Of a stretch of DNA of 14,285 bases, positions 1 through 14,285 are shown in pieces. The stretch is taken from NCBI GenBank assembly GCA_049424145.1, contig JBMSSC010000071.1:1-14285 (forward strand), given 5' to 3'. The stretch comes from Bdellovibrionia bacterium (GTDB lineage: Bacteria; Bdellovibrionota; UBA1018). The notes beneath the pieces were generated by a model. It was not told the origin of the DNA. It ran no database searches and was given only the letters and a program-made list of their open reading frames with translations. Numbering within the stretch: position 1 is the stretch's first letter; every line of letters starts with the position of its first letter. The position numbers and the translations under genes are program-made.

Positions 1-13
1 AATCTAGAAGAGG

Positions 14-53
14 AAAAAAAAAGGGACAAAGGAGAAAAGATTCTCCTTTGTCC
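14..53 (-). terminator. Rho-independent terminator of the 172-aa gene
   Basis: Perfect 13-bp inverted repeat GGACAAAGGAGAA (24-36) / TTCTCCTTTGTCC (41-53) with a 4-nt loop. On the minus strand it is followed by C and a T9 run (A14-22). It lies 25 nt past the stop at 79. Confidence 0.9.
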
Positions 54-78
54 GGATTCGATCCAGCTCAGAAATCGA

Positions 79-597
79 TTAGATCGTGTCTTGAGAAGGA
101 GCGGAAGTCTGGTCGCCAGCTGGCTCAAGGGTGAGGATGGAGAGGCCGGTTTCAAAGCCGAATCCTAAGGAGCCAGAGACGCCGAGAGAAAGTCTCACGC
201 CGTTCATTGGATTTTGGAAGTTCGAGCTCACGCCAGCGCCCAAGATCACAGCAGCTTGAACGTCAGTGGTCACGTAGTGGCCATAGAGGTCTTCCAGGCT
301 GCCATTGAAGCCGAAGCTGCTTGAGAGGCCGTAGACGTGCAAGTAGCCAGCGCCCACGCGTGCAGAAACGGGGTGACCGCCAATGGTCACGTTGACAGCG
401 CGTTGGCTTTCGTTGCCGTGAACGTCTTTGCAGGTCACCATGCCGGTGCCGCTGAGTTTGAAGTAACCGAGGCCGACTTGGAGTCCTCCGCCTTTTACAT
501 CATAAGCTAAACCGCAGGTGTAAGTGTGAGCCAGAGCAGGTGTGGTTGCACCGAGGGCAGCTAGCAAACCTAAAGCAGGAAGTAAAAACTTTCTCAT
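79..597 (-). CDS. Secreted Gly-rich beta-strand protein, possibly DUF992-like
   Basis: Strong RBS (AAGGAG, 6 nt before ATG) and a Sec signal peptide MRKFLLPALGLLAALGATTPALA|H. The mature part has two Cys and alternating Gly/hydrophobic strands (GGGLQVGLG, LYGHY...AAVILGAG, GSLGFGFETG). The gene has its own terminator. Family resemblance is by eye only (about 0.35). Confidence 0.85.
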   Translation of the reverse strand: MRKFLLPALGLLAALGATTPALAHTYTCGLAYDVKGGGLQVGLGYFKLSGTGMVTCKDVHGNESQRAVNVTIGGHPVSARVGAGYLHVYGLSSSFGFNGSLEDLYGHYVTTDVQAAVILGAGVSSNFQNPMNGVRLSLGVSGSLGFGFETGLSILTLEPAGDQTSAPSQDTI

Positions 598-624
598 AAT
601 TCACTCCTTATTTATTGATAATTG

Positions 625-646
625 TATACCGCTACGTAGCAGTATA
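625..646. promoter_or_regulatory. 22-bp near-perfect palindrome, candidate operator or 5'UTR hairpin
   Basis: TATAC-C-GCTACGTAGC-A-GTATA has one mismatched pair, which is a U-G wobble in the minus-strand RNA. It lies about 28 nt upstream of the 172-aa start in an AT-rich intergenic region and overlaps a minus-strand TATACT. Confidence 0.45.
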
Positions 647-816
647 ATTGGGCTCACTATTACAAAAATCGAATTTAGCTGTCTATTCTTTTTATGGATT
701 TTTTAAAATTTTAGAAAAAAAACTGCTTCAGTATGTTTTGACATGGCGCAAAAATAGATGGAAATTTGATCTATTGAATTTAGTGATTTATTGTTGATTC
801 AGCTTGGATTAATGTT

Positions 817-1686
817 TTACGAATTTTTGCAAATTGAAACATAGAAGTCTAAAATTCGATAGATTTGAGTCGTAAATAATCGGTCTCTCCAACGAATTTG
901 ACCTAAAAAACTAGGGTAAAAAGCAGTTGTTTTTTGATTCAAACTGAGCTTCACTTCTAGTTCTAAGAGGTCGACGCTTAAGCCTAGATCTAAGGCTTTG
1001 AGTAAGGCCTCTTTAGCAGTCCAGATCGCATAAAAAAGTGAAGGATCCGTTCGAATTTGGGCTTTCTCATGCTCAGTTAGCGCGATTGAAATTAAGTCCG
1101 AGTCAAGCGGGAGTTTGATTTTCTCAAGGTCGATTCCAATTTTTGGCTGAAGCCATCTGTGTTTACGTTCATCTCGAGTGTTCGATTGCTTGAGGCTTGG
1201 TTTTTTTTGGCAGGAGAGAAGTGCTGCGCAAGCCCATTCATTGGAATGAGAGATAGAAAGATCATTAAAAAATAGAGATAATATAGAATTGAAATTGGAC
1301 CTTTTATCTGGGTTGAGTTGAGCTTGAGGTCTTCCACTCGGTGAGTTGATGATTTCAAAGGAATGAAGGCAATCCTGCAGCAAAGAATCAGTTCTGGGGC
1401 AGTCAATAAAGAAAGTAAAAGCAGAGTGGTTCACCCATTGAAGTACGACTTTCTTTGCCGCAATTCGTCCGGCAAGCCATTCGTTTTGTCTTTTTTTTGT
1501 TTTCAGTCGATAAAAGAGATCCAGCTCGCGCGGGCTGAGCGAAAACCAGCTCAGGGTCTTCGAGCGCATCAGCTCATTGAGATCTGCTGGAATAGGAGTG
1601 AACGCCCATTCGAGGTAAGTGTTAGGTTCTAGGTCATGAAACTCAGGTTTAAATCCACTGACAGCTGGAGAATCCACAGTCCACAT
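817..1686 (-). CDS. Sfp-type 4'-phosphopantetheinyl transferase
   Basis: Motifs EWLAGRIAAKK, SGRP, SISHS, IGIDLE and FYAIWTAKEALLKALDLGL. The track ORF starts at 1842, 194 nt inside the ER gene. The ATG at 1686 (289 aa) or the GTG at 1677 is more plausible; the start is uncertain. Confidence 0.92.
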   Translation of the reverse strand: MWTVDSPAVSGFKPEFHDLEPNTYLEWAFTPIPADLNELMRSKTLSWFSLSPRELDLFYRLKTKKRQNEWLAGRIAAKKVVLQWVNHSAFTFFIDCPRTDSLLQDCLHSFEIINSPSGRPQAQLNPDKRSNFNSILSLFFNDLSISHSNEWACAALLSCQKKPSLKQSNTRDERKHRWLQPKIGIDLEKIKLPLDSDLISIALTEHEKAQIRTDPSLFYAIWTAKEALLKALDLGLSVDLLELEVKLSLNQKTTAFYPSFLGQIRWRDRLFTTQIYRILDFYVSICKNS

Positions 1687-2554
1687 AGAGGGTTTGACCC
1701 GTGATTTTTTTCGATCGATCGCTGCATAAAAATACGATCGTGTCGGCAACGTCCTGAGCTGTGATGGATTCCTGAATGGCGCTTTTGGACGCAAAGGCGG
1801 CTTGGATTTTTGTCCAGCAGGCTTTGGCAAATTGGAGCTCATCGGTTTCTTGTCCTAGTTCTTGTTCGACTTGTCTTAGGATTTCTAGAAGTTGTGGATC
1901 GGCCTGGAGGCGGAGGGCTTGTGGGTCACGCTTAAGTGCAATAATTTCCGAGAGCGAAGCGAGGGTTTCAATTGGGCCCGCTGAAACGGCATTGATCCGA
2001 ACCTTGTTTTCTCGTCCAAGCTCGAGGGCGAGGAGTTTAACGAGGCTCTCCAAAGCTGCTTTAGCCACTCCCATCATGCCATAAAGGGGCATGGCTCGCT
2101 GTGAGGCCTGAAAGGTGAGGGTAACAATACTCGATCGGGGCCTCAAGTAGGGACGAGCAAATCGAACGAGCTTGGCAAGAGAATGGGTGGAGAGCTCCAG
2201 GGTTTCGGTGAAGTCAGTTGAGCTCACCTCCGAGGCTGCGCAGGTGAAAAGGCTAGAAGGAGCATAGGCAATGGAGTGAATCAGTAGATCGAGGCCATCC
2301 TCTTGAAAGCGCCAGAAGAAGTCCTCAAGCTCATCTGGATTTAAGACATCACACCGTTGTGCTTGAACTCCGGGATACTTCTCCAACAGAGGGCTGATGC
2401 GGCTTAAGAACTTGTGCTGATAGCCAAGGGTGACTTGCGCGCCTGCTTGGTGAAGGCTCTGAGCAATCGCCCAAGCGATGCTTTGGTGATCAGCCACACC
2501 CAGCACGGCTGCTTTTTTTCCAAGTAGAGGAAGGTTCTCATTTGAGTGGTTCAT
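1649..2554 (-). CDS. fabI: FabI/InhA-type enoyl-ACP reductase (SDR) with extended substrate-binding loop
   Basis: GKKAAVLGVADHQSIAWAIA, LIHSIAYAP, catalytic Y158-xx-M-xxx-K165 (YGMMGVAK), RINAVSAGPIETLA and ITGQTLYVDCG. ATGA start/stop overlap with the upstream gene and a GGAG RBS. Confidence 0.9.
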   Translation of the reverse strand: MNHSNENLPLLGKKAAVLGVADHQSIAWAIAQSLHQAGAQVTLGYQHKFLSRISPLLEKYPGVQAQRCDVLNPDELEDFFWRFQEDGLDLLIHSIAYAPSSLFTCAASEVSSTDFTETLELSTHSLAKLVRFARPYLRPRSSIVTLTFQASQRAMPLYGMMGVAKAALESLVKLLALELGRENKVRINAVSAGPIETLASLSEIIALKRDPQALRLQADPQLLEILRQVEQELGQETDELQFAKACWTKIQAAFASKSAIQESITAQDVADTIVFLCSDRSKKITGQTLYVDCGFSSCQWI

Positions 2555-5500
2555 GTCAGAAGGCTCCGAAATGGGATCATTTTTAAGTCTGAAATTTCAG
2601 TGTGAAGCAGGAGATGATGAGGTGAGATCTGTGAAGGATCTGAAAACGGCGTTTTGGACTGATAGAGAAGGAGGTGAAACAAGCCAGGGGATGGGGTTCT
2701 TGCATGAAGGAGAAAAGGTCCTGTTCCTAAGCGTTCAGAAGCAGCCCCGGCTATGACCTTGAGTCTCCCAAGAGAGTGGGGAATGAGCGACTCTCCCTCT
2801 GTCTGACTATGAAGCCACGAGCAGAGGTGAAAGCCTGCTTCGTATGCCCAAGGCTCTGAGTGGTAGAGGTGTGCATCCGGCAGATGAACCAGTTGAGCGT
2901 GAGCCCAAGCTTCGGTTCGGTTCAGAGGTCGAATGGATCGTAAAACCTGAAACCTGGGGCCTAAGGGTATTTGAAGGCGCTCAGCACCGTAAATGGTTGA
3001 ACGCAGCCAATCCGATGACGAACGCATCCCTTCGGGTAAACGGGGAGACTCGCCCGGGCATTCTGGGGCCTGGCCTAAATCCACTTGGGCTTCAAACAGG
3101 GGGGTGAGCTGGGTCTTTTGCTGCACGAATAACTCCACTCGAACCGAGCGCAGGTGAGGTTGAAGGCCAAAAGACGCCTGAGCTTTAATAAAAACTTCGA
3201 CTGAGTGTTGATCGGGAATCTCTAGGCTTTGGAAAATTCTAAAATTTCTCACTCCAAGATACGGATGCTCGGGCAAAATAGCGCGTGCGGCTTGCACCAT
3301 CATTTCCAGTGCAAACGTAGCAGGCAAGAGCAGAACCTGGGAGAATCGATGATCTTCAAGCCAGGGGAGCTCGCCTACGCTGATGGAAGTGCAGGCGTGG
3401 AGGGAGGATCCAGGGTAGAAACGGTGGATTTTTTGAAGAAAGCAGAATGAATCCAAGACGTAGGAATCCTGGAATGCTGGATGGCTTGGTGCTTCTTGCT
3501 TAGGACCAATGCTTTGAGTCTCTCGTTGAATGGTGAGCCCAAGAGCGGGGTTCTCAGGAGTCTTAGATTCAGCGCCCTTCAGGGGAAGAGGAATGGGATC
3601 CTGCTTCTTTTTTTCAATCACCACTTCGCCTGCTTCTCGTCCATAAAGAACCTCCTCGAAAAAAGCCTGTACGCCCTCTGCAGGATTCAGTGGCTCAGCC
3701 TCAGTGCCGCGGATGAGTTCAGCCACTCCGCTGCGGGCTGCCATTCCCACCTCATCCCAAGCACCCCAGGAAAGAGCCAGCCATCGCGTCTCGGGATAGC
3801 GGTGGCCCAGATCCTCAAGAAGGCTCACTGACGCAGCATTAGCAGCAGCGTAGTCACATTGCCCTGGGTTGCCAAAAGTCCCCGCCACGGAACTAAAGAC
3901 ACAAAAAAGTTTTGCCTTTTTCTTGCCTCCCCATTCCCCGAGGTGCTTCAACCCTTGTACTTTGCTTTGGTAAACGCGTAAGAAGGAATCGAAGGTTTTT
4001 TTTTCAAACCTCTGGTCTTCGAGAATTCCTGCGGCATGGATCACCAGGTCGATGGACTCGGGATCGAGTCGTTCTGCTGTCTTGTTCCAGCATTCGTTTT
4101 GCGAGAGGTCACAGCTGATGTATTGAACCTGAGCTCCCGCCTTGAGCAAGGATTCGAGTTTGAGGATCACCTGAGGGTCACTGGCTGGGGTTCTCCCCAG
4201 GAGAATGATTCGCAGGTCGGGTGCGTGTTGAGTCAGAGCAAGAGCAATCTTGTGTCCCAATCCTCCTAATCCTCCTGAGATCAATACCGTACTTCTGGAG
4301 GTGATCTCAAAAGACGCAGAGAGGGAAAAATCAATCTCACTGGGGTGAAGCGTGGGAGTGAGAAATTCGGTCGGAGCCCCTCCGTCCGTGATCATGCGGA
4401 CTTCGGAAACACTTCCTCCAGTCAGGAGCTTCTTCAGTAGGGTAGGAATCGCCTCTGAGGAAGGCTGCAGCGCTTTTTGTTCTTCGACTTCAGCGCGGAG
4501 TTCTCGTTGCTCGATCCAGATGAACTGAGAAGTGGGGAATTCCCATCGGAGCGTTCTGAGTAGACCTTGGGTTGCTCCTGCGAGCTCAGTCATTGCCGAG
4601 AAATTCGGTGAGCCGAGAGGGGGAGTTTTTAAGATGACGGCCACCTGGGCTTGACCTTGGATTTCCTTTAATCGTCTGCTGAGCTCATGAAAGAGCGTGT
4701 CTAAAATGGATTGGGCATGAAGGAGGCCAGTGGCTGGGGGCTCGCAGAGAAAGACCAGTCTTGAGCTCGGGTGTGGTTTAAGAGCTGAGTCATCTTCTGC
4801 TGTTGGAATTTCCGAGGAAGCAGTGGGATGAAAGAAATTCACCGCTGCAAGCTGTCGCGTGAGGTGTTCGGTCCATGGGCTTAAGGCGCAAGTCAACGGG
4901 ATCACACCACCTAAGTAGGGTTCGACTAACGGGATTTCTCCTCGGCTTTGAAGGGGAGTGTCCCAGGTGCCTCTCAGTGATGACCAACAGACGATGGCTC
5001 GTTTTTTTTGGGCCCGCTTTTTCTCCTCTCGGGGAGCGAGGCTCCCTTTTTCAATGAATCGCACCCAATGTCCAAGCGTAGGGAAATCCTTAATACGGAG
5101 GCCAGATTCAAACTGGAGAGCAAAGTACTTTCTTAACTGACCTGCAATCTGTGCTTGCTTAATGGTGTCAATCCCCAGGTCGGCCTCCAGGTCGGCATCC
5201 CGTTGTAACAGATTCAGGTCGTAGCCCGTGTGCGCTTGAGTGATTAAGCAAATCAAATGGAAGATCTCTTCAGCGGTGTAGACCTTTCCTGGTACTGGCT
5301 CAGGGAGGCAGACTCCGCCTAAGACAGAGGAGGAAGAAAGACCTGAGAAGAGGCTGAAGGAGGCTTGGGGGCGTTCGATTCTTCTTTGAGCTAAACGAGG
5401 GAAAAATCCCTCGAGGGTTTCGAGGAACTCGTTGAGAGTCTTTGCTTTTTCTAGAGCACTTGCTAGCTCGGAGAACGAGGGTTGCATCCAGCGGTGGAGT

Positions 5501-5772
5501 GAGGTTTGAGCTTCCAAATGCGAGAGGAAGCGCGCTAGAACCTTTCTTCGTTGAATGGAGCTCACGCCCAGGTCCTCTTTTAGGCCAAGCGGTCCTAAGA
5601 GATTTTCTCGGCCATATCCAGTCACTTCCGCTAGGGCTAACAGCAGGAGTTCTTGAAAACCCATGGGAGGATCCCCGGGATGGGTCGTGGTGCAGCGCTG
5701 GGAATCAGTCCATGCTTCCTCTGCAACACGGGATTTGATGAGGCGAGGCGAGTGATCAAGGCTAGGTTGCAC
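2551..5772 (-). CDS. Iterative PKS/FAS subunit B: ACP-ACP-KR-DH (PfaA C-terminal-like)
   Basis: ACP1 (TGY...EDLGVSSI) and ACP2 (TGY...LEADLGIDTIKQ). KR: ISGGLGGLG, HAAGILED, SSVAGTFGNPGQCDYAAAN, WGAWDEVGM. DH: WLEDHRFSQVLLLP, GPRFQ. GTG start with AAGGA RBS 6 nt upstream, overlapping the upstream gene by 11 nt. An alternative ATG lies at 5664. Confidence 0.9.
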   Translation of the reverse strand: MQPSLDHSPRLIKSRVAEEAWTDSQRCTTTHPGDPPMGFQELLLLALAEVTGYGRENLLGPLGLKEDLGVSSIQRRKVLARFLSHLEAQTSLHRWMQPSFSELASALEKAKTLNEFLETLEGFFPRLAQRRIERPQASFSLFSGLSSSSVLGGVCLPEPVPGKVYTAEEIFHLICLITQAHTGYDLNLLQRDADLEADLGIDTIKQAQIAGQLRKYFALQFESGLRIKDFPTLGHWVRFIEKGSLAPREEKKRAQKKRAIVCWSSLRGTWDTPLQSRGEIPLVEPYLGGVIPLTCALSPWTEHLTRQLAAVNFFHPTASSEIPTAEDDSALKPHPSSRLVFLCEPPATGLLHAQSILDTLFHELSRRLKEIQGQAQVAVILKTPPLGSPNFSAMTELAGATQGLLRTLRWEFPTSQFIWIEQRELRAEVEEQKALQPSSEAIPTLLKKLLTGGSVSEVRMITDGGAPTEFLTPTLHPSEIDFSLSASFEITSRSTVLISGGLGGLGHKIALALTQHAPDLRIILLGRTPASDPQVILKLESLLKAGAQVQYISCDLSQNECWNKTAERLDPESIDLVIHAAGILEDQRFEKKTFDSFLRVYQSKVQGLKHLGEWGGKKKAKLFCVFSSVAGTFGNPGQCDYAAANAASVSLLEDLGHRYPETRWLALSWGAWDEVGMAARSGVAELIRGTEAEPLNPAEGVQAFFEEVLYGREAGEVVIEKKKQDPIPLPLKGAESKTPENPALGLTIQRETQSIGPKQEAPSHPAFQDSYVLDSFCFLQKIHRFYPGSSLHACTSISVGELPWLEDHRFSQVLLLPATFALEMMVQAARAILPEHPYLGVRNFRIFQSLEIPDQHSVEVFIKAQASFGLQPHLRSVRVELFVQQKTQLTPLFEAQVDLGQAPECPGESPRLPEGMRSSSDWLRSTIYGAERLQIPLGPRFQVLRSIRPLNRTEAWAHAQLVHLPDAHLYHSEPWAYEAGFHLCSWLHSQTEGESLIPHSLGRLKVIAGAASERLGTGPFLLHARTPSPGLFHLLLYQSKTPFSDPSQISPHHLLLHTEISDLKMIPFRSLLT

Positions 5773-8700
5773 GGTCGATCCTTGTGGAAAGCGTTCTTAA
5801 GGAGTCCATCCCACTGTCTGAGACAAAAGAGTGATGGGGTTTTGATTCTAAAATTTTCTCGGTAAATCGCGTGAGAATGGACTTGGGTCCGACCTCAACC
5901 CAGATGCGGACGCCCTGATGGAAGAGGGACTCGATGCATTGGGTCCAATTCATGGGGCTTCCGATTTGATTCACGAGGTTTTGACGGACCTCCGAACTGA
6001 GAGAGGAGGATTGGCGGTAGTCCAACTGAGTGAGGTTGCTCATGACGGAAACCCGAGGCGAAGTGATGGGGAGTTGGTCAAAAGCCATTCGGGCTTGGTC
6101 TTCTCCAAGGGCTTTGGCTAAGGGAGAGTGCCAGGCAACGTGGATACCCAGAGGCTCGGAGTCAATTTTGTGTTGGGAGAATAGAAGCCTGAGCGGGGTG
6201 ATGAGCTCAGTGGGAGCTGCGATCACGGTTTGGGTTGAGCAGTTTTTCACGGCCAGGGTGGTCTGAGCGCTCAGGGGTTGAGACCCTTGCAGAATCGCTT
6301 GCGTCTGAGGAGCTGAGCAGAAAACAGCCATCATCCGGCCCGTGTCGCGTCCTTGGTTTTGGTGGGATTTAAAAATCCATCCCCGCTGGTAAGTGGCCAC
6401 TAACGCCTCTTCAAAGGGCATCATCCCTCCTGCGACGCATGCGGCAAATTCTCCTACGCTGTGGCCTAAGTACACATCGCCTGATACGCCCAGTTCGCGA
6501 AGGAGACGGTAGTAGGCCAGGTTGAATGTCAGCAGAACCGGTTGAACCATATGAGTCTCGAGCAAATTCTTCTGAACCGATTCGCGCGAGCTCCACGAAG
6601 TGAAAACTAGTTTCTCCACGGTTTGACCCAGCAGAGGTTCAAGCACTGAGTTGGCCTCTTGGATCGTTCGGCGAAAGACAGGGAATCGCTCATAGAAGGC
6701 TCGACCCATGTCGGGATAAGGGGAGCCGTGTCCGGGGAATAAAAAGGCAATCCTGGGTTTTCTTCGGTGAGTTTTCCGGCGCGATGGACTGAAGTGTGGC
6801 TGGATGGGTTTTTCTCCAACAATCAGGCTCCAGTTGGTTCCCCCGAAGCCAAACGCGTGGACCGCAGCCTGGCGATTGCTTCCCTGATGGCCCGGAGCCC
6901 AAGGGATGAGGTTCTGTGCCACCTCTAAACCTCGTGCCTCGAGCTGAAGTGCAGGGTGGACTGCGTTTTCTACTCTCATGGGAGGGATTTGTTTTTTCTT
7001 TAGGCCTAAGATCACTTTCAGCAGAGCCACGGCCCCTGCAGCCCCGAGCGTATGACCCACCTGGGATTTTACGGATCCAATGAGTAACGGAGGGGAGGAC
7101 CTTGGGCCATACACTTCTGAAAGAGCGCTGAGCTCGATGGAATCCCCTACAGGCGTTCCCGTTGCGTGGCACTCCACGTATTGAATCTGATCGGCTGATC
7201 CTTGAGCGCTCTCCAAAGCGCGTCTCATGGCTAAGGTTTGCCCGAAAACATCGGGTGCCATCATGGAGTGACCCCTGCCGTCGCTGGAGGCTCCGATGCC
7301 GAGAAGAACGGCGTGTACAGGGTCCCCATCTAAAAGCGCATCATCGAGTCGTTTTAGAATCAAAGTGGCCGTTGCTTCGCCCAGTAATATCCCATTGGCT
7401 TGCGTGTCAAAGGGTCTGCTTCCATCGGGCGACAGAGCATGGCATTGAGAGAATAAAATCTGAGTTCCTGGCGTGAGGCTGACGCCTGCTCCCCCGGCCA
7501 GGATCACGCGATGTTTTCTCATTTGTAAGCTGTGCATGGCTGCTCCGATGGCGGCTAGAGAAGAAGCACAGGCTGCATCGAGCGTGGAAAAGGAGCCCTT
7601 TTGAAGATCGAGAGTTTTTGCCACTCGGGCTACGACGGAGTGGAATTGAAGAGACGCTAAGGATTCCTCTGAGGGAAATAGGGACTTGAGTCCCAGTTGG
7701 GAAATGAGACTTTGAAACAAGGCCTCCTTCTCCGTAATGGAGATGACTTTCACTTGAGGAAGATAAAATTCGAGTCGAAACAGGAGGATCTGAAGGGAAA
7801 GCATCCAGCCTGCTTGATTGCAGCTTTTGGACTCCCCAATGAGGATTTCATCGATGGGAAGGGTGCTGAGTTCGGGGCTAGATCCAGGAGGGAGCCCGAA
7901 TGGGTTTTTCGACGTCCCTAAGCCCCAGTGCTTAAGGCTCTGGAGGGTGGAGTCCAGAAATTGCCGTTGTATGGGATCGAGAATGCTTAGAACCGATGGC
8001 GGGATTCCTAGCCCAAGCTCCGGTAGAGTGGGAGTCCAGGTGAGTGCCGCTTGATCGGCTCGGGAGAGTGCCAGGTTCGTGGGTGCGTTGGGGTGCTTCT
8101 GGGAGTGAACAAAGAGCTCTTTGTGTTCTGCGTAAAAAGAGTCTGAAAGCGGTGCGATGAAGGACTTTTGAGATACGAGGTTCTCCCAGAAGTTCTCGGG
8201 ATTTGAGCTTCCGGGAAGATTGGCGCCATATCCGATAACAGCAATGGGAGTTGGTTTTTGTTTGGGTCGCTGTTCTAAGCTGCTCCAGCGATTCTTCAGG
8301 ACAAAATTTTTGGGGTTCCATTTTTCAATAATCAGATGGTAGGCCGATCCCCATCCTCCAAAACTGCTCAGGGCAGCTTGAATAGGCTTGTCAGGGCTCT
8401 CACCATGAGATCGGGGATGATCGGTGACCCAGGAAAACGGCAGCGGTGAAGCTGGGGGGAGTTCTGGAAACCACACGTCTTGATTGAATGCCAAGAGCAC
8501 CTTGGCTAAAGAGGCCGCTGCGTGGGCTCCTGCCATAAAGCCGTGTTGACTCGCCAGGTGTCCAAGCTGAAGGTCCGGGTGTTTGCCGTACACCGATTCA
8601 AGTGCTTGCCGTTCTGCCTGATCCTCCCAGGGGACTCCAGATCCTTGGGTCTCCAGATGATGAATCTGCTGGGGATCGCTTTGGGCTTGATGAAGAGCCG

Positions 8701-10966
8701 ACTGCATGGCTGAAATTAACGCTTGCGGGGAGGTCTCTTCAATTCCAAAGCTTCGCCCTGAGCTGCTTTGACCGAGGCCTCGGATCAATCCCCAAATGGG
8801 ATCTCCTGCTTGTAAGGCTGAGGAGAGTTTTTTTAAGACAAACAGTCCGCATCCTTCAGAGGGAAGAATCCCTGAGCCTGAAAATGGAGAGTTCGGAGCG
8901 CCGCCCAATCGCTCCTCTAAAAAGAGGAGAAACCAATCTAACGGGTCAATGAGGGTGTGGGCTCCTCCGGTGATGACGGCCTCAGCCCCGTCCGTGCGAA
9001 GTAGCGTGATGGCGTGATCCAAGGCCGCCAATGTGGAGGAGTGTCCGGAGTTCACCACGTAGCTTGGCCCGTGAAAATCAAAGTGACTCATCACGCGACC
9101 GACAGCGACATTGAGGAGCCCTCCTGCAAGCGAGTCCTCCGTGCAGGCGATGGAGGGAGGGGCCATCAGTTGATCGAGGTGAGAAAGCTCCTCGGGGGAG
9201 AATCTTGGGAGACCCAAAGAGGATTGGGATTTGAGCAGGGATCCAATGAGTCGGAAGCCCAGTTGCTGATTTTGCAGATCGTCGACTTGCAAAAACGATT
9301 GACTGCAGCCTAAGACGAAGGCGGTTTTTAGCGGGGGGAGGCCCGAGGGAGGGATATCACTGAGGGCCTGATGAGCAGTGAGCAAAACGAGTTTTTGAAT
9401 TCGATCCATGGCCTGAACGGTCAGAGGAGGAATCTTAAAGATTTCAGGATCCAAGTTGAGGGGATCGAGAAATCCTCCCCACTTCATGGGGCGCGCGGGG
9501 GTGGGACCGATCTTGGATTTTTCGAATCCCATGCGATCGAAGAACGCCTGCTCCCAATCTTTCCAGGCGTGAGGCGAGAGGGTGCGACGGGCGGAACGGA
9601 GGTTCTGCTCAAAGGCCCTTAGGTTTAAAGCTTGTGGAAACCTGCCTCCGAGTCCAACAATCGCAATGGGCTCGTTCTTGGGCTCTGGGGCTGACCTCGG
9701 GGCGCGTGACCCGTTTGAACTGACTTTGGAGGCGGCAAGGGGGGGAGGCAGGGGAGGGGCAAACGGGCAAGAGCCCAGCGGGGGGCGGGGTTCTTTCAAT
9801 CTCCCCCATTGCGTTCGAATACAAAAATCCACCAAAACGGGGAGTGAATCCCGGATATTCGGAACCTCTAGTCCTGAGTCTTTTAAAGCCTCCCTGAGTT
9901 GTGAGTTGTCGTAGACGTAGGGATCAAACGCATAAGGAAGCAGTCGCATGAAGACCTGCCAGGATTCCCGCAAAATCGGATCCGCTTGAGCTAGGCTTGC
10001 TTTGAATTCCTCGGGCTTCACATCGGGAATCTCTTGCCACTCGGGTTGAGGTGGGACTTGAAGTCGAGATCTTTGGGCGTGGGCTTGAAAAACTTGAGCG
10101 CAGCGGCTGAGCCCCTCTTGAAGCCGGGTGGCTTGGTGGCCTGAGGTGAGGTGGTAGATCTGAAATCCCGGGTGCACGGGGCGTGTCCGCAAAACGAACA
10201 GGGCGTTAGTCACCCAATCCACGGTGACTGCATCAATTCGACTGCCTTGCGGTAAAACAATGGGATTGATCTTGCCCACAACCTCATAGAGGAAGAAGCG
10301 GACTCCGAGATAAAAGCTATCGAGTTTGGGCGTCCATCCGGTTTTTGAGTCTCCTCCGACCATCGATGCGCGATAAATGACGACGGGGATGAAGTGGCTT
10401 TGTTCGATGAGAACCGCTTCAGCTTCTACTTTGGTTTGTTCATAGGTGTTTTTAAACTCACGTGGAAATGTTGGAGGCAGTTCTTGAGCCTGTCCAGAAG
10501 GATCGATGGGTGCGACTGTGAATGTGCTTAAGTAGTGAAAACCGAGGAAAGATCCACTCTGCTGAGCGGCTTTTGCAAGTTCACAGAGGTTTTTAGTCGA
10601 GAGCACTTGGGAAATTCGTGCTTGATCGAGGGGTTGATCGAATCGAACGTCGGCAGCCAAATGGTAGATTGCTGAGACCTTGCGAGCTAAAGTCTCATAA
10701 TCGGCCTCTGATAGACCTAAATGGGGGTCTTTGAGGTCGCAGGCAAGAAAGCTCAGTCGATTCAGCACGGGTTTGGGATCGGAAAGCTCACGAAAGAGTT
10801 CTTGAGCGAGGGTATCAAATTTCTGGGCAGCAGTTTGGCTTTGACCCTGAGTCCCATCGCGAATGAGAAGAATCACTTGGCAATGGGGATCCCAAAGGAG
10901 GAGTCTTCTTAAGAATTCGCTTCCAATAAATCCTGTGGCTCCAGTGATGAGAACGCAATGCTGCAT
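5762..10966 (-). CDS. Iterative PKS/FAS subunit A: thioester reductase - inactive KS - KS - AT
   Basis: N-terminal extended SDR (ITGATGFIG, HLAADVRF, YLST, YEQTK, YRASMVGGDSKTG) and a Pro-rich linker. KS1 lacks the catalytic triad. KS2 has DAAC(1133), HATGT(1267), KSQVGH(1305) and AFGFGGTN. AT has FPGHGS, GHSVG(S1503) and AWHS. AGGA RBS 7 nt before the ATG. Confidence 0.93.
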   Translation of the reverse strand: MQHCVLITGATGFIGSEFLRRLLLWDPHCQVILLIRDGTQGQSQTAAQKFDTLAQELFRELSDPKPVLNRLSFLACDLKDPHLGLSEADYETLARKVSAIYHLAADVRFDQPLDQARISQVLSTKNLCELAKAAQQSGSFLGFHYLSTFTVAPIDPSGQAQELPPTFPREFKNTYEQTKVEAEAVLIEQSHFIPVVIYRASMVGGDSKTGWTPKLDSFYLGVRFFLYEVVGKINPIVLPQGSRIDAVTVDWVTNALFVLRTRPVHPGFQIYHLTSGHQATRLQEGLSRCAQVFQAHAQRSRLQVPPQPEWQEIPDVKPEEFKASLAQADPILRESWQVFMRLLPYAFDPYVYDNSQLREALKDSGLEVPNIRDSLPVLVDFCIRTQWGRLKEPRPPLGSCPFAPPLPPPLAASKVSSNGSRAPRSAPEPKNEPIAIVGLGGRFPQALNLRAFEQNLRSARRTLSPHAWKDWEQAFFDRMGFEKSKIGPTPARPMKWGGFLDPLNLDPEIFKIPPLTVQAMDRIQKLVLLTAHQALSDIPPSGLPPLKTAFVLGCSQSFLQVDDLQNQQLGFRLIGSLLKSQSSLGLPRFSPEELSHLDQLMAPPSIACTEDSLAGGLLNVAVGRVMSHFDFHGPSYVVNSGHSSTLAALDHAITLLRTDGAEAVITGGAHTLIDPLDWFLLFLEERLGGAPNSPFSGSGILPSEGCGLFVLKKLSSALQAGDPIWGLIRGLGQSSSGRSFGIEETSPQALISAMQSALHQAQSDPQQIHHLETQGSGVPWEDQAERQALESVYGKHPDLQLGHLASQHGFMAGAHAAASLAKVLLAFNQDVWFPELPPASPLPFSWVTDHPRSHGESPDKPIQAALSSFGGWGSAYHLIIEKWNPKNFVLKNRWSSLEQRPKQKPTPIAVIGYGANLPGSSNPENFWENLVSQKSFIAPLSDSFYAEHKELFVHSQKHPNAPTNLALSRADQAALTWTPTLPELGLGIPPSVLSILDPIQRQFLDSTLQSLKHWGLGTSKNPFGLPPGSSPELSTLPIDEILIGESKSCNQAGWMLSLQILLFRLEFYLPQVKVISITEKEALFQSLISQLGLKSLFPSEESLASLQFHSVVARVAKTLDLQKGSFSTLDAACASSLAAIGAAMHSLQMRKHRVILAGGAGVSLTPGTQILFSQCHALSPDGSRPFDTQANGILLGEATATLILKRLDDALLDGDPVHAVLLGIGASSDGRGHSMMAPDVFGQTLAMRRALESAQGSADQIQYVECHATGTPVGDSIELSALSEVYGPRSSPPLLIGSVKSQVGHTLGAAGAVALLKVILGLKKKQIPPMRVENAVHPALQLEARGLEVAQNLIPWAPGHQGSNRQAAVHAFGFGGTNWSLIVGEKPIQPHFSPSRRKTHRRKPRIAFLFPGHGSPYPDMGRAFYERFPVFRRTIQEANSVLEPLLGQTVEKLVFTSWSSRESVQKNLLETHMVQPVLLTFNLAYYRLLRELGVSGDVYLGHSVGEFAACVAGGMMPFEEALVATYQRGWIFKSHQNQGRDTGRMMAVFCSAPQTQAILQGSQPLSAQTTLAVKNCSTQTVIAAPTELITPLRLLFSQHKIDSEPLGIHVAWHSPLAKALGEDQARMAFDQLPITSPRVSVMSNLTQLDYRQSSSLSSEVRQNLVNQIGSPMNWTQCIESLFHQGVRIWVEVGPKSILTRFTEKILESKPHHSFVSDSGMDSLRTLSTRIDRAT
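5800..6751 (-). other. Domain: acyltransferase, probably malonyl-CoA:ACP
   Basis: IAFLFPGHGS, GHSVGE, conserved Arg in YQRG, VAWHS (AFHS-like) and WVEVGP. Boundaries approximate. Confidence 0.88.
6812..8251 (-). other. Domain: active ketosynthase
   Basis: Intact Cys-His-His triad in DAACASS, ECHATGTPVGD and GSVKSQVGH. Boundaries approximate. Confidence 0.9.
8321..9673 (-). other. Domain: degenerate ketosynthase (KS0 / chain-length-factor-like)
   Basis: Begins EPIAIVGLGGRFP and retains MDRIQ, EGCG and SFGGWG. The active-site motifs read NSGHSS, ETQGSG and ASQHGF. Boundaries approximate. Confidence 0.85.
9790..10966 (-). other. Domain: N-terminal thioester/fatty-acyl reductase (NAD_binding_4 / FAR-like extended SDR)
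   Basis: TGATGFIG Rossmann motif, DL..P.LGLS...Y..L, ST catalytic pair, Y175-EQT-K179 (10430-10444). Boundaries approximate. Confidence 0.85.
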
Positions 10967-11054
10967 GGCTGAGTCCTGCTTGGTTGCTCACCATCGCACA
11001 AAATGCGGGAGCTCGCAATTTGACTTCACTTGAAAAAAACGAGAGTCTGAACTC
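10967..11054. promoter_or_regulatory. 88-bp divergent promoter region between the PKS operon and the lgt-like gene
   Basis: Head-to-head starts at 10966 (-) and 11055 (+). No clean sigma70 -35/-10 pair was identified. Confidence 0.5.
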
Positions 11055-11885
11055 ATGCGTGCAATTCTTTTTGTGATCGCGGGTCGCCCTGTGATTAGTT
11101 GGGCATTCTTTGCTGTTGTGGGGATGTGGGCCGCCTTTTTTAAGATTCAAGCAGAGCTCAGACGAAAAGGAATCTCTGACCTTCGTTTGATGGCCCTATT
11201 TTTAAGTGGCACCGTGGCGTGGTTTTTGGGCGCACGCCTGGCGCAGGGGCTGACCGTCGATCCGTCGTTTTCAATCAACCAGTTTTCTCTCTGGTGGAGA
11301 GCATCCACAGGCTATGTTTTGTATGGTGGGGTATTGGGTGTCTTCCTGGTGGGGTGGGTGTTTTGGTGGTTTTTGGGCTTAAAACGGGCATTATCTTTAA
11401 GTGAGTTTTGGGACTTTGGAGCCGCAGCCTTAGGGTGGGCTCTATTTTGGGGGCGGATTGGGTGTGGATTTTACGGGTGCTGCTATGGAACACCGGCAGG
11501 GCCTTGGCCTGGTTATGAGCTGCGTCCTGAGTATTGGGATTTTCAGAACCGTGAGTTTCCCTGGACTCTTCAAGGAGTGAGGCTTCATCCCACTCCTTTT
11601 TACGAAGCGCTGGGGATTTTTCTTTGTCTCGTGATCATCAGTCGTCTTCAACGCTGGGGAAGGGGGCAAGTCCGGCTCGTGCCGCCCGGGGTTTCTGGAT
11701 GGCTGTTTTGGTTTTTGTATGGCGTGCTTCGATTTTTTTTGGAATGGATTCGATTAGATCTCAGGGGCATTGGATTTGCTGGGCTTTCACCCAGTCAATG
11801 GGTTTCGATCGGGCTCATGGGGATTGCGCCGGGTTTGATGGTTTTTGAGTGGTATCGAAATCAGGTTTCCACAGAGGGCCGTTGA
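11055..11885 (+). CDS. lgt: Prolipoprotein diacylglyceryl transferase (Lgt)-family membrane protein
   Basis: Multiple hydrophobic helices. Motifs GARL, LYGG, WD..A......WGRIGCGFYGCCYG, HPTPFYE, YGVLRFFLEWIR.D and LSPSQWVS. Possibly a divergent paralogue. Confidence 0.85.
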   Translation: MRAILFVIAGRPVISWAFFAVVGMWAAFFKIQAELRRKGISDLRLMALFLSGTVAWFLGARLAQGLTVDPSFSINQFSLWWRASTGYVLYGGVLGVFLVGWVFWWFLGLKRALSLSEFWDFGAAALGWALFWGRIGCGFYGCCYGTPAGPWPGYELRPEYWDFQNREFPWTLQGVRLHPTPFYEALGIFLCLVIISRLQRWGRGQVRLVPPGVSGWLFWFLYGVLRFFLEWIRLDLRGIGFAGLSPSQWVSIGLMGIAPGLMVFEWYRNQVSTEGR

Positions 11886-12738
11886 GCCTTGGCGCTGATG
11901 CCTGGGGTTTTGCCTCCTTCCGCACGATTAGGCGATAGGTGAGTCGGTGGGAGAAGATCTCGTGGAGGAGTGAGTCAAGAAGCAGTCCTGCCAACACGTC
12001 AAACAGGGAGTGTTGCTTGAGGGTGAGCGTGGAGAAGCAAATGAGCACGCACCAGAGAATCATCAGGGGAAAGTAGGGTTTTTGATCCTCCCTAAAGCCT
12101 AAGGCGATTTGAAAAGCGAGGCTCACATGAAGGCTGGGCAGACAGTTCATGGGTCGATCCAGTTGCCAGAGTCCATTGACCATTTTTTTAGTCCACAGGG
12201 ATCCAAGTGTGAAAAGGCTCCAAGGATTTTGGGGATCAGGTGAGATCTGAGAGAGAAACTCCTCTCGCGGATAAGTCGTGGGATAAACCCAAAAAATGAA
12301 GCAACTGCAGATCACTAAGGTTGCGAAAGAGTAAAGATGGATGTGCAGACTCACTAAGCAGCGATTCAGAGCAAATGCCGTGAGCACGAGCAGGAGCTCG
12401 CTGTCATAAATCCAAACCGACTCTGGGATGAAAGGAATTCTTTGATCCAGCTTGCCCAGAAAAACGGGATGAGGCGTTTTTTCAATGCCATGATTTGTGG
12501 CAAGATATGCGCTCAAGCCAAGAGCTAGTAATGTGGGTCCTGCGATCCATTTGTACTGCCAAGGGATCCAAAGAGGCAGCAGTCCGTCCTCGTGAATTCG
12601 ATCCCAGAGAAAAATGGGAGGAGATTTACCGTTTTCTTGGCGTGGTGAGATCGGATTTTTTTTCGTTTTGTTTTTTGTCTTGGATGACCGGTGGAGTCTT
12701 TTTTGATCCAGGAAACTCAAGGACCTCAGTAGTGCCAT
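11815..12738 (-). CDS. PAP2-superfamily membrane enzyme, Aur1/inositol-phosphorylceramide-synthase-like
   Basis: LDQRIPF...WIY, YPTTYPR, D.PMNCLPSLH (C2) and STLTLKQHSLFDVLAG (C3 His/Asp), with several TM segments. GGAGG RBS 9 nt before the ATG at 12738. Confidence 0.82.
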   Translation of the reverse strand: MALLRSLSFLDQKRLHRSSKTKNKTKKNPISPRQENGKSPPIFLWDRIHEDGLLPLWIPWQYKWIAGPTLLALGLSAYLATNHGIEKTPHPVFLGKLDQRIPFIPESVWIYDSELLLVLTAFALNRCLVSLHIHLYSFATLVICSCFIFWVYPTTYPREEFLSQISPDPQNPWSLFTLGSLWTKKMVNGLWQLDRPMNCLPSLHVSLAFQIALGFREDQKPYFPLMILWCVLICFSTLTLKQHSLFDVLAGLLLDSLLHEIFSHRLTYRLIVRKEAKPQASAPRLNGPLWKPDFDTTQKPSNPAQSP

Positions 12739-13339
12739 TGCCTTTGACCTCCGTCTCAGGCGAAGTTGTAGAGGGGGAGGGATCAGGGATCAAGCGATTT
12801 TTTTTTGGCTTTTCAAATTCGATTTCTTTAGGAATTTGACTTCCATCTAAGATGGTTTCAGCTCGAGGAGACTGAGGAAGTCGGGGGGGTGATTTTTTTG
12901 TCTGAGTCTCGGTGTCTTGTGGATCGGGCTGATTCAAAGAATCAGCACTTGAACCTTTTGAGCCGGCTTCAGGCTGGCTCCCCATCAAACCCAAAAGCGA
13001 TTTGGGGATAAATTCTCGAGAGAGGCTTTTAAAAATGGTTGATGCGATATCGCTTTGAGCTTGGCGATAAAATTGGGTGTATTTTTCATTCATCGAGCTG
13101 GCGTAGTTGAGAATTGCAGGTTCCAATAGCGTCTTTTTGAGTTGATTGATCTTTTCAGGCGTTCTCGAATCCCCAAGCTTGTTGAGTTCCGAGTAGTACT
13201 GATGGAAGGCTTGGTCTCTTGCTTTTAGGGCCTCAGTTGCCGATCGGGCGTGGGCAATTTCTAGGTCAAACAAGACACAGAGGATGCCTGAGCTGACTAA
13301 GGCGAAGACTTTGAGTAAGAAACGAAGGTAAAAAGACAT
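12626..13339 (-). CDS. Hypothetical exported protein with helical N-domain and low-complexity P/S/K/T-rich tail
   Basis: 237-aa ORF with an N-terminal hydrophobic stretch ending AHA, an amphipathic helical segment and a disordered-looking C-terminal half. It starts at an AT-rich intergenic region. Confidence 0.7.
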   Translation of the reverse strand: MSFYLRFLLKVFALVSSGILCVLFDLEIAHARSATEALKARDQAFHQYYSELNKLGDSRTPEKINQLKKTLLEPAILNYASSMNEKYTQFYRQAQSDIASTIFKSLSREFIPKSLLGLMGSQPEAGSKGSSADSLNQPDPQDTETQTKKSPPRLPQSPRAETILDGSQIPKEIEFEKPKKNRLIPDPSPSTTSPETEVKGNGTTEVLEFPGSKKTPPVIQDKKQNEKKSDLTTPRKR

Positions 13340-13417
13340 AAGTATTCGGTTTATTCTGTTTCGCTAGATTCTTCTTTTTATTATTTTAATATAGTGTATT
13401 ATAAATGTATAGTTTAT
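13340..13417. promoter_or_regulatory. Very AT-rich divergent promoter region
   Basis: 78-bp AT-rich gap between head-to-head ORFs, with several TATAAT-like hexamers on both strands. Confidence 0.5.
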
Positions 13418-14285
13418 ATGTTGAAATTACTTTTTTTATTCCTTTTGATAGGCTCTGAGAAAGTGGTCTTAGCTCAAGCTCCGGTTGGATCAGCCGGAGG
13501 AAGTTCTTTAGGAAGTCCTACGCAGTCTGAGTCGATTGTTCCGGGTTCGTTTGTTCAGGCACCCTGCCTGGACTTAGATGAGAAGCAAGCTTTGTCGCCT
13601 CCTTTGTCCGCTCTTTTTATTCCCAAATGTTCGGAGTTTTTGAACAATCAGACCAAGGATGGATTTTTGAGTCGCTATAGTCAGTTCTTTCGCGAGCGAA
13701 TCCAATGTTTTTATGAGGGGACGATTATTGAACTCTCTAAAGATGTGACTCTGATTTCGGGCCCTCAGAGCTGCTCACTGGGGAAGCCAATCTACCCTCC
13801 TCCTCTACCTAAGGCTGTGGTTTGTTCCATTGCTGATGGAGAGGGAGATCGTTTAGGGTCTTCATCGGGAGCAACCACCCCGAACTCCTTAAAGGAATCC
13901 TGTGGTGTTCTTGCTGACAGCTCGGGCCAGTGGGAGCGAGCACAGGAATTGGGTCTTGAGGTTCAAGCAACGAAGTTTTATAGAAACCAGCTCATCCAAG
14001 AGCTGCTGACTCGTAAGAGTTTTCAGCTCACCTCAGCCATGTGTCAATCCCAAGCCGACGATTACAGTCGTCTGTGGTTAGAAACCAAGGATCTGGTTCA
14101 AAAGAGCTTATTGAAGTTCTCCTCTGATCAGTTTGAAGCCTTTCGACAGTCGAAGTCCAATCTGTGTGCTGTGGAGTCGATTCAGCTGAAAAATGGAGCG
14201 GTTGCACCTCCGAGTCAAGCCTCTTGTTACTTAAAAAGTCTGATGGATCGGCTGGCTTTGGTTTTTTTCTACCTAGTTGAGTGTG
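13418..14285 (+). CDS. Secreted Cys-rich hypothetical protein (partial, runs off window)
   Basis: Manual translation from the ATG at 13418 gives MLKLLFLFLLIGSEKVVLA|QAPVGSAGG..., open for 289 codons to the window end, with 10 Cys. Absent from the ORF track because there is no stop in the window. Confidence 0.8.
   Translation, partial: MLKLLFLFLLIGSEKVVLAQAPVGSAGGSSLGSPTQSESIVPGSFVQAPCLDLDEKQALSPPLSALFIPKCSEFLNNQTKDGFLSRYSQFFRERIQCFYEGTIIELSKDVTLISGPQSCSLGKPIYPPPLPKAVVCSIADGEGDRLGSSSGATTPNSLKESCGVLADSSGQWERAQELGLEVQATKFYRNQLIQELLTRKSFQLTSAMCQSQADDYSRLWLETKDLVQKSLLKFSSDQFEAFRQSKSNLCAVESIQLKNGAVAPPSQASCYLKSLMDRLALVFFYLVEC

Follow-up and report, generated by a model that had tools for sequence, protein, structure and literature searches.

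Threonine at the phosphopantetheine attachment position of an acyl carrier domain in a Pfa-like synthase cluster of a Bdellovibrionia bacterium

The serine that bears the phosphopantetheine arm is treated as invariant in descriptions of fatty-acid, polyketide and non-ribosomal peptide synthases. In the parts available of PMC3098273, PMC8436480, PMC13291983, PMC4882568 and PMC5067506, the attachment residue is given as serine only or the site is not mentioned. No description of a threonine phosphopantetheine site was found in the full-text literature, a search in which subscription journals were not covered, so its absence from print is unproven. Among the closest described systems, the PfaA synthases of the Shewanella, Photobacterium and Schizochytrium type have tandem acyl carrier protein (ACP) domains placed between the acyltransferase (AT) and the ketoreductase (KR), and a dedicated PfaE-like phosphopantetheinyl transferase (PPTase) of the Sfp type. 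Here we describe a related cluster in a Bdellovibrionia bacterium (GCA_049424145.1), on the contig JBMSSC010000071.1, analyzed over positions 1 to 14,285 (14,285 nt, hereafter the window). Gene 2 of this cluster (protein P0001) encodes two ACP-like domains, ACP1 and ACP2, and the second has a threonine, Thr203, where the serine is expected:

5038..5280, minus strand: ACP2, residues 165-245, PfaA-type ACP with the motif LEADLGIDTIKQAQ, Pfam PP-binding match over the cut-off
5164..5166, minus strand: codon ACC of Thr203, at the phosphopantetheine-Ser position, first residue of helix II

We suggest that ACP2 is probably the working carrier, phosphopantetheinylated on Thr203 by the product of the adjacent PPTase gene. 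This proposal comes from sequence comparison, namely the family-wide conservation of Thr, the swaps between Ser and Thr, and the clusters checked in which Thr-type ACPs are the only carriers. The second carrier domain of gene 2 is LEADLGIDTIKQ, and the longer reading of P0001 is ...DADLEADLGIDTIKQAQ... The Pfam model PP-binding (PF00550) matches it over residues 183-240 with 22.0 bits (cut-off 20.8), and with 23.1 bits in a scan of the whole genome. The conserved serine of this family (the DS of GxDS, at the start of helix II) is absent from ACP2, Thr203 being in its place. An AlphaFold model of residues 35-250, built on a 21-sequence alignment, has a mean predicted local distance difference test score (pLDDT) of 82.9 and displays two helical bundles, in which Ser72 of ACP1 and Thr203 of ACP2 each open helix II, the canonical attachment position. 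Within ACP2, the pLDDT means of 10-residue blocks are 80-94, and comparison by VIA with solved ACPs (model residues 130-213) recovered the four-helix ACP fold with Z 11-13 and, for whole chains, root mean square deviation (rmsd) of 1.4-1.9 Å.

Searched with phmmer against 1.84 billion representatives, ACP2 (81 aa) returned 3123 matches at E<=1e-3, and the residue at the site column was read from ACP2 aligned to the gathered proteins before and after a profile search. In the first set (159 proteins, 158 with ACP matches), the 603 domains have Thr in 394 cases, Ser in 207, Ala in 1 and Arg in 1, with 104 proteins being all-Thr and 51 all-Ser. In the enlarged set (282 proteins with matches from 285), 1148 domains have Thr in 932, Ser in 212, Arg in 2, Ala in 1 and Pro in 1, while 225 proteins are all-Thr, 52 all-Ser and 5 mixed; because a Thr-type query and a mixed profile were used to collect these sets, their Thr:Ser ratio does not reflect a natural frequency. 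Ser or Thr thus occupies the site in 1144 of the 1148 related domains, and 220 of the 224 all-Thr proteins other than that of the window have 3-6 tandem copies. The Thr-type motif LEADLG[VI]DTVKQAE.F is nearly invariant, with LEADLG[IV]DT[VI]KQA as the class consensus. Each of the four Thr codons occurs at the site (ACC 9 times plus the window, ACG 7, ACT 2 and ACA 1), and such variety within a frozen motif suggests selection at the amino-acid level. The named sources of Thr-type proteins are metagenome-assembled genomes of Acidobacteriota (Terriglobales, Blastocatellia), Gemmatimonadales, 'Deltaproteobacteria', Elusimicrobia, Polyangiaceae and others; the closest Ser-type relatives from named organisms belong to Planctomycetota, including cultured Planctomicrobium strains. 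The original prediction had stated that GIDT-type ACPs recur in Pfa-like synthases, which the homologue sets and the motif scans verified. It presented Thr as peculiar to this cluster, which was too narrow, since Thr is a trait of the family.

Ser and Thr replace each other at this position at several levels. Within the orthologous group of gene 2, the ACP2 site is occupied by Ser in P0007/P0162 and by Thr in the other members, namely the window, P0008 and L055. Orthologous stand-alone ACPs of two genomes from the same family as the window have GVDT (codon ACA) in one and GIDS (TCA) in the other. A metagenome synthase of 3237 aa (L124, positions 1-9711, plus strand) has three tandem ACPs with GIDS, GIDT and GIDT, thus mixing Ser-type and Thr-type carriers in one array, and P0071 has the order T-T-T-T-S within one protein. 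Maximum-likelihood trees of ACP domains were built with the site column removed. The minimum number of Ser/Thr changes was 5 among 302 domains (mean of 58 with shuffled labels) and 10 among 393 domains (mean of 102), these counts being approximate because trees from about 68 columns are weakly resolved. The trait is therefore linked to clades, yet it has been switched repeatedly.

In the cluster regions of Thr-type proteins (8 kb on each side of the match), the PF00550 matches are Thr-type ACPs only, in 5 of 5 genomes. Beyond the site, the only conserved residues with a hydroxyl or thiol in Thr-type domains are the Thr of TGY and the Thr of FPTL, both also found in the aligned Ser-type relatives; conserved Ser or Cys residues are otherwise absent from the Thr-type domains. 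The Thr-type protein P0013 passes the NCBIfam model omega_3_PfaA (1153 bits, cut-off 1010). Among the all-Thr proteins of at least 2400 aa, a crude regular-expression search found the active-site Cys motif of the ketosynthase (KS) in 37 of 44 and GHSxG in 43 of 44. Judging by these motifs, the Thr-type synthases look catalytically intact. A PPTase related to that of the window lies directly downstream in 6 of the 7 Thr-type genome loci, and the nearest relatives of the window enzyme are encoded just downstream of Thr-type ACP genes. In an alignment of 13 sequences, the catalytic motifs of the PPTases are intact and the same in Thr-linked and Ser-linked enzymes.

The chemistry proposed would be ordinary, with an altered nucleophile: the Sfp-type PPTase would move phosphopantetheine from coenzyme A (CoA) onto the hydroxyl of Thr203, and holo-ACP2 would then serve the KS, AT, KR, dehydratase (DH), enoyl reductase (ER) and releasing reductase as their carrier. 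ACP1 would descend from the first ACP of an ancestral didomain and have diverged since, with the four-helix fold kept and the conserved site lost. Its features are:

5389..5664, minus strand: ACP1, degenerate ACP-like domain, residues about 37-128, motif EDLGVSSIQRRK, with no PP-binding match and an ACP-like model
5557..5562, minus strand: codons of Ser71 (AGC) and Ser72 (TCC) of ACP1, Ser72 being at the canonical site and the preceding Asp being replaced by Ser

The first carrier-like domain of P0001 reads ...LKEDLGVSSIQRRK..., in its short form EDLGVSSIQR. Reading both domains again from the minus-strand open reading frame (ORF) gave GVSS in ACP1 and GIDT in ACP2, as claimed in the original prediction, whose interval of 5044-5661 spans both domains and whose residue numbers are correct when counted from the GTG start. 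Pfam PP-binding has no match over residues 37-128 at E<=0.01. In the phmmer search with ACP2, the protein of the window itself was matched over two stretches, the second of which may be ACP1. Folded alone with AlphaFold2, ACP1 reached a pLDDT of 87.7, and the 50 VIA matches listed are without exception ACPs (Z 8.4-9.8, rmsd 1.9-3.1 Å), an outcome favoured by the input alignment, which consists mainly of true ACPs. In two alignments (A3 and A4), ACP1 is homologous to the first ACP of the didomains of Ser-type relatives, and in the 18 didomain relatives of A3 this first ACP has a good LEADLGxD[ST]IK motif. The residue at the site varies among the orthologous lineages:

ACP1 site in the window: Ser, in GVSS
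ACP1 site in P0007/P0162: Arg, in SIDR
ACP1 site in P0008: Arg, in GVDR
ACP1 site in L055: Pro, in GIDP

The start of helix II in ACP1 is basic, with QRRK in the window and KRRK, KRAK and KKNK in the orthologues. As the site is not conserved across the four orthologous lineages, ACP1 is probably a degenerate domain with an ACP fold and not a carrier, and its role would most likely be structural or docking. Of the two options offered by the original prediction, the comparative evidence thus favours the phosphopantetheinylation of Thr, while ACP1 as the sole carrier is disfavoured by its unconserved Ser and by the lack of a PP-binding match.

Several points weigh against modification of Thr203, in addition to the bias in how the protein sets were gathered and the weak resolution of the trees. 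In scans with short motifs Ser is the more frequent residue, with 37 Ser and 18 Thr at 26 loci in genomes (ID[TS]IKQAQ) and 105 Ser and 46 Thr at 79 loci in metagenomes (LGID[TS]IKQ). The uniformity inside tandem arrays may come in part from concerted evolution. Part of the conservation could have a structural cause, as either residue, Ser or Thr, makes a good helix N-cap. Among the PPTases, no Thr-specific signature was found in the 13 sequences compared, a comparison confounded by phylogeny. An E. coli ACP with its Ser changed to Thr is reportedly not modified by AcpS, so that a tolerant PPTase would be required for a Thr acceptor. Since this organism keeps Ser at the ACP1 site, there is a small chance of ACP1 still being modified in it. 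Finally, no RNA run containing the window stretch was present in the run listing.

One alternative is that both ACP1 (Ser72) and ACP2 (Thr203) are modified and form a didomain carrier. It would continue an ancestral didomain of two good ACPs, as seen in the 18 relatives of A3 (17 Ser-Ser and 1 Thr-Thr), and the window is the only one of the four orthologous lineages to keep a hydroxyl at the ACP1 site. Nevertheless, we find it unlikely: the ACP1 motif has decayed (LKEDLGVSS against LEADLGxDS) and is followed by the basic helix II SIQRRK, the domain has no PP-binding match, and its orthologues cannot be modified at the site column.

It is more doubtful still that ACP2 is a non-carrier with a structural or docking role and that the chain is borne by Ser72 of ACP1. 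This Ser does stand at the canonical start of helix II in a domain that models as an ACP fold, and known PPTases are described as Ser-specific, with serine alone spoken of in the available portions of the reviews. Such an arrangement is hard to reconcile with Arg, Arg and Pro at the ACP1 site of P0007/P0162, P0008 and L055, and with Ser or Thr at the ACP2 site of these orthologues, in a motif that is highly conserved. ACP1 also lacks the Asp before its Ser and a match to PP-binding, and Thr-type ACPs are the sole carriers in all 5 of the other Thr-type clusters checked.

A further alternative, which we regard as very improbable, is that Thr-type ACPs are never phosphopantetheinylated, with AcpP borrowed in trans or with another kind of attachment, such as direct acylation of Thr. 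Stand-alone FabI-like enzymes such as the ER of this cluster work with free AcpP, both an AcpP-like gene and a second PPTase are present in the genome, and the full-text literature searched holds no biochemical precedent for Thr. On the other hand, the arrays of 3-6 strictly conserved ACPs in hundreds of PfaA-like proteins would then lack a role, the site is taken by Ser or Thr alone in 1144 of 1148 domains, mixed arrays are found, and a dedicated PPTase is co-encoded. From known chemistry, a Thr oxoester without the arm of about 2 nm could neither reach the buried active sites nor serve as a good substrate in Claisen condensation.

The original prediction had also pointed to the reads at 5164-5166, and the contigs of four public runs were aligned on positions 4600-5800: X1, which may be the source sample, X2 and X3 from study P2, and X4 from study P3. 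The contigs of X2, X3 and X4, three further runs from two other studies, cover the codon with zero differences, leaving ACC unchanged; X4, from a diverged strain that differs at 5 positions in a piece of 236 nt, still has ACC. X2 and X3 keep AGC TCC of ACP1, a site outside the coverage of X4. Across the stretch 15 differences were listed, 9 of them synonymous. Although AGC and TCC each differ from ACC by one base, an error of sequencing or assembly, or a mutation private to a single strain, is refuted by these unchanged codons amid mostly synonymous differences, and Thr is also found in the orthologues P0008 and L055.

In the cluster, four genes are tightly packed on the minus strand in the order reductase-KS0-KS-AT, ACP-like-ACP-KR-DH, FabI-like ER and PPTase. 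From its domain content, this four-gene operon is a predicted Pfa-like secondary-lipid synthase with a reductive release domain. The genes and remaining domains are:

5762..10966, minus strand: gene 1 (P0002), 1734 aa, with a thioester-reductase, a KS-like domain without the active-site Cys, a predicted active KS and an AT
2551..5772, minus strand: gene 2 (P0001), 1073 aa, GTG start, with the ACP-like domain, ACP, KR and DH
3754..4290, minus strand: KR domain, residues 495-673 of P0001, Pfam KR with E 9.4e-38
2743..3390, minus strand: DH domain of the polyketide synthase (PKS) type, residues about 795-1010, Pfam PKS_DH_N and PS-DH
1649..2554, minus strand: FabI-like enoyl reductase gene, Pfam adh_short_C2 with E 2.9e-59
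817..1842, minus strand: Sfp-type PPTase gene, longest ORF, Pfam ACPS with 55.2 bits (cut-off 25)

In P0002, Pfam recognizes NAD_binding_4 (residues 7-255), two pairs of ketoacyl-synt and Ketoacyl-synt_C, and Acyl_transf_1 (1408-1709), and NCBIfam assigns the N-terminal domain to Thioester-redct. The first KS-like domain has NSGHSS at residues 639-649 (NSGHSSTLAAL, positions 9020-9052, minus strand), with His at the position of the active-site Cys. The second KS keeps Cys in DAACASS at residues 1130-1140 (DAACASSLAAI, 7547-7579, minus strand), and the AT has GHSVG at 1501-1505. An inactive partner similar to the chain length factor (CLF) therefore stands before the active KS. In P0287, the one full-length orthologue of gene 1, the only motif returned by a crude pattern search was the Cys-containing one of the second KS. 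The thioester-reductase (NAD_binding_4, 10100-10966, minus strand) is N-terminal on the KS-AT protein and not C-terminal behind a carrier domain, a placement that suggests product release in trans, as an aldehyde or alcohol.

Gene 2, with its GTG start, shares its first 11 nt with the end of gene 1, and the ER gene in turn starts in overlap with the gene 2 stop. In the DH, the motif HxxxGxxxxP reads HRFSQVLLLP (positions 3322-3351, minus strand), with Gln in place of Gly, which is kept in P0007 and L055. The top NCBIfam models for the ER gene are FabI, yet the scores are under their cut-offs. The product of 817-1842 belongs to the Sfp-type PPTases (PF01648), with a profile score above the cut-off, the catalytic acidic residues in GIDLE, and the motifs SISHS and WTAKEALLK. 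At the N-terminus of its 341-aa ORF, about 90-115 residues form a basic, Pro-rich extension overlapping the ER gene; translation probably begins internally, later than in the longest ORF, because the orthologue in L055 has only 224 aa. On the upstream side, the cluster is flanked by Lgt (prolipoprotein diacylglyceryl transferase) and a PAP2-family phosphatase (11055-12738), and a tie of the cluster to lipid or envelope metabolism is possible.

The assembly has 2.69 Mb and is 95% complete. It contains two PPTases and three PF00550 matches: the AcpP-like gene, an ACP fused to an adenylating enzyme (GIDS), and ACP2. The fused protein (L002, G000:C26:15401-18541) has an N-terminal ACP (EEDLGIDSLARAQ) joined to an adenylate-forming enzyme similar to fatty acyl-AMP ligases (FAAL), and is the only other non-housekeeping carrier of the genome. 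A search with P0001 did not find the cluster in 40 genomes of the same family or order (completeness 56-99%), and an ACP match was present in only two of them. Two genomes of the window's family, at the loci L024 (G023:C415) and L025 (G016:C101), contain a small conserved trio formed by a PPTase, a stand-alone ACP and a protein of about 230 aa, these ACPs having 168-196 aa with a long N-terminal extension and being of the Thr-type in one genome and of the Ser-type in the other. Full-length relatives were found for gene 1 (P0287, 46% identity) and for gene 2 (P0007/P0162, P0008 and L055). L055 is a syntenic orthologue with the same gene order, PPTase included. The profile search was dominated by tandem-ACP proteins, and no further orthologue of the window gene was gained from it. 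The cluster is rare overall.

We think it likely, though we hold this a little less firmly than the assignment of ACP2, that a large and phylogenetically broad PfaA-like clade attaches the arm to Thr, as read from the sequences compared, and that O-(4'-phosphopantetheinyl)-threonine would be the first natural carrier site other than serine. The switch from Ser to Thr may have been selected rather than neutral: it might, for example, insulate Thr-type ACPs from housekeeping PPTases and ACP phosphodiesterase, or make the phosphodiester less prone to loss by beta-elimination. If this holds, the substrate rule of the PPTases needs widening, and annotation based on motifs that require Ser miscalls or misses thousands of working carrier domains. 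Heterologous expression of such clusters with Sfp or AcpS may then fail for a simple, fixable cause. It also becomes testable what a PPTase needs to use a secondary alcohol, and whether the Thr linkage alters cofactor turnover. For the window, the carrier of a rare reductase-terminated Pfa-like lipid pathway would be ACP2 and not ACP1.

Compared with known systems, the tandem ACPs of PfaA share with ACP2 the family and the frame LE.[DE]LGID.IK, with Lys at +2, and the classic Ser-type PfaA motif LETELGIDSIKRVEI is among the matches to ACP2. The Thr-type class is like PfaA in the placement of its arrays and in its dedicated PPTase. The difference is at the site and after it, with Ser followed by IKRVE in PfaA and Thr followed by [VI]KQA[EQ] in the Thr-type. 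The window protein is further from PfaA, with one good and one degenerate ACP, and neither P0001 (126.5 bits) nor P0002 (401 bits) reaches the cut-off of the PfaA model TIGR02813 (1010.1 bits). In PfaC, the order is KS-CLF, the reverse of that in P0002.

Among named organisms, the Ser-type synthases closest to the ACP1-ACP2 region are the didomain synthases of Planctomycetota (Planctomicrobium and Pirellulaceae genomes). In them two ACPs precede KR-DH, the second with GIDSIKQAQ against GIDTIKQAQ in the window, the site residue being the sole difference. No degenerate first ACP was seen in these proteins, which have DS in both ACPs and, in contrast to the window, KS, AT, ACPs, KR and DH fused in about 2600-3000 aa. 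A search of the PDB by sequence found no solved structure of a Thr-type ACP, its sole match being the doublet ACP of PigH from the prodigiosin pathway (PDB 5y08, E 5.3e-14), which is also the top Foldseek match to the two-domain model. PigH has two tandem ACPs like the window, but with the canonical DS in both domains and in a different pathway. As for the transferase, the window enzyme shares SxSHS, GxDxE and WTxKEAxxK with the Sfp-type and PfaE-type PPTases, from which it differs in its presumed acceptor, Thr.

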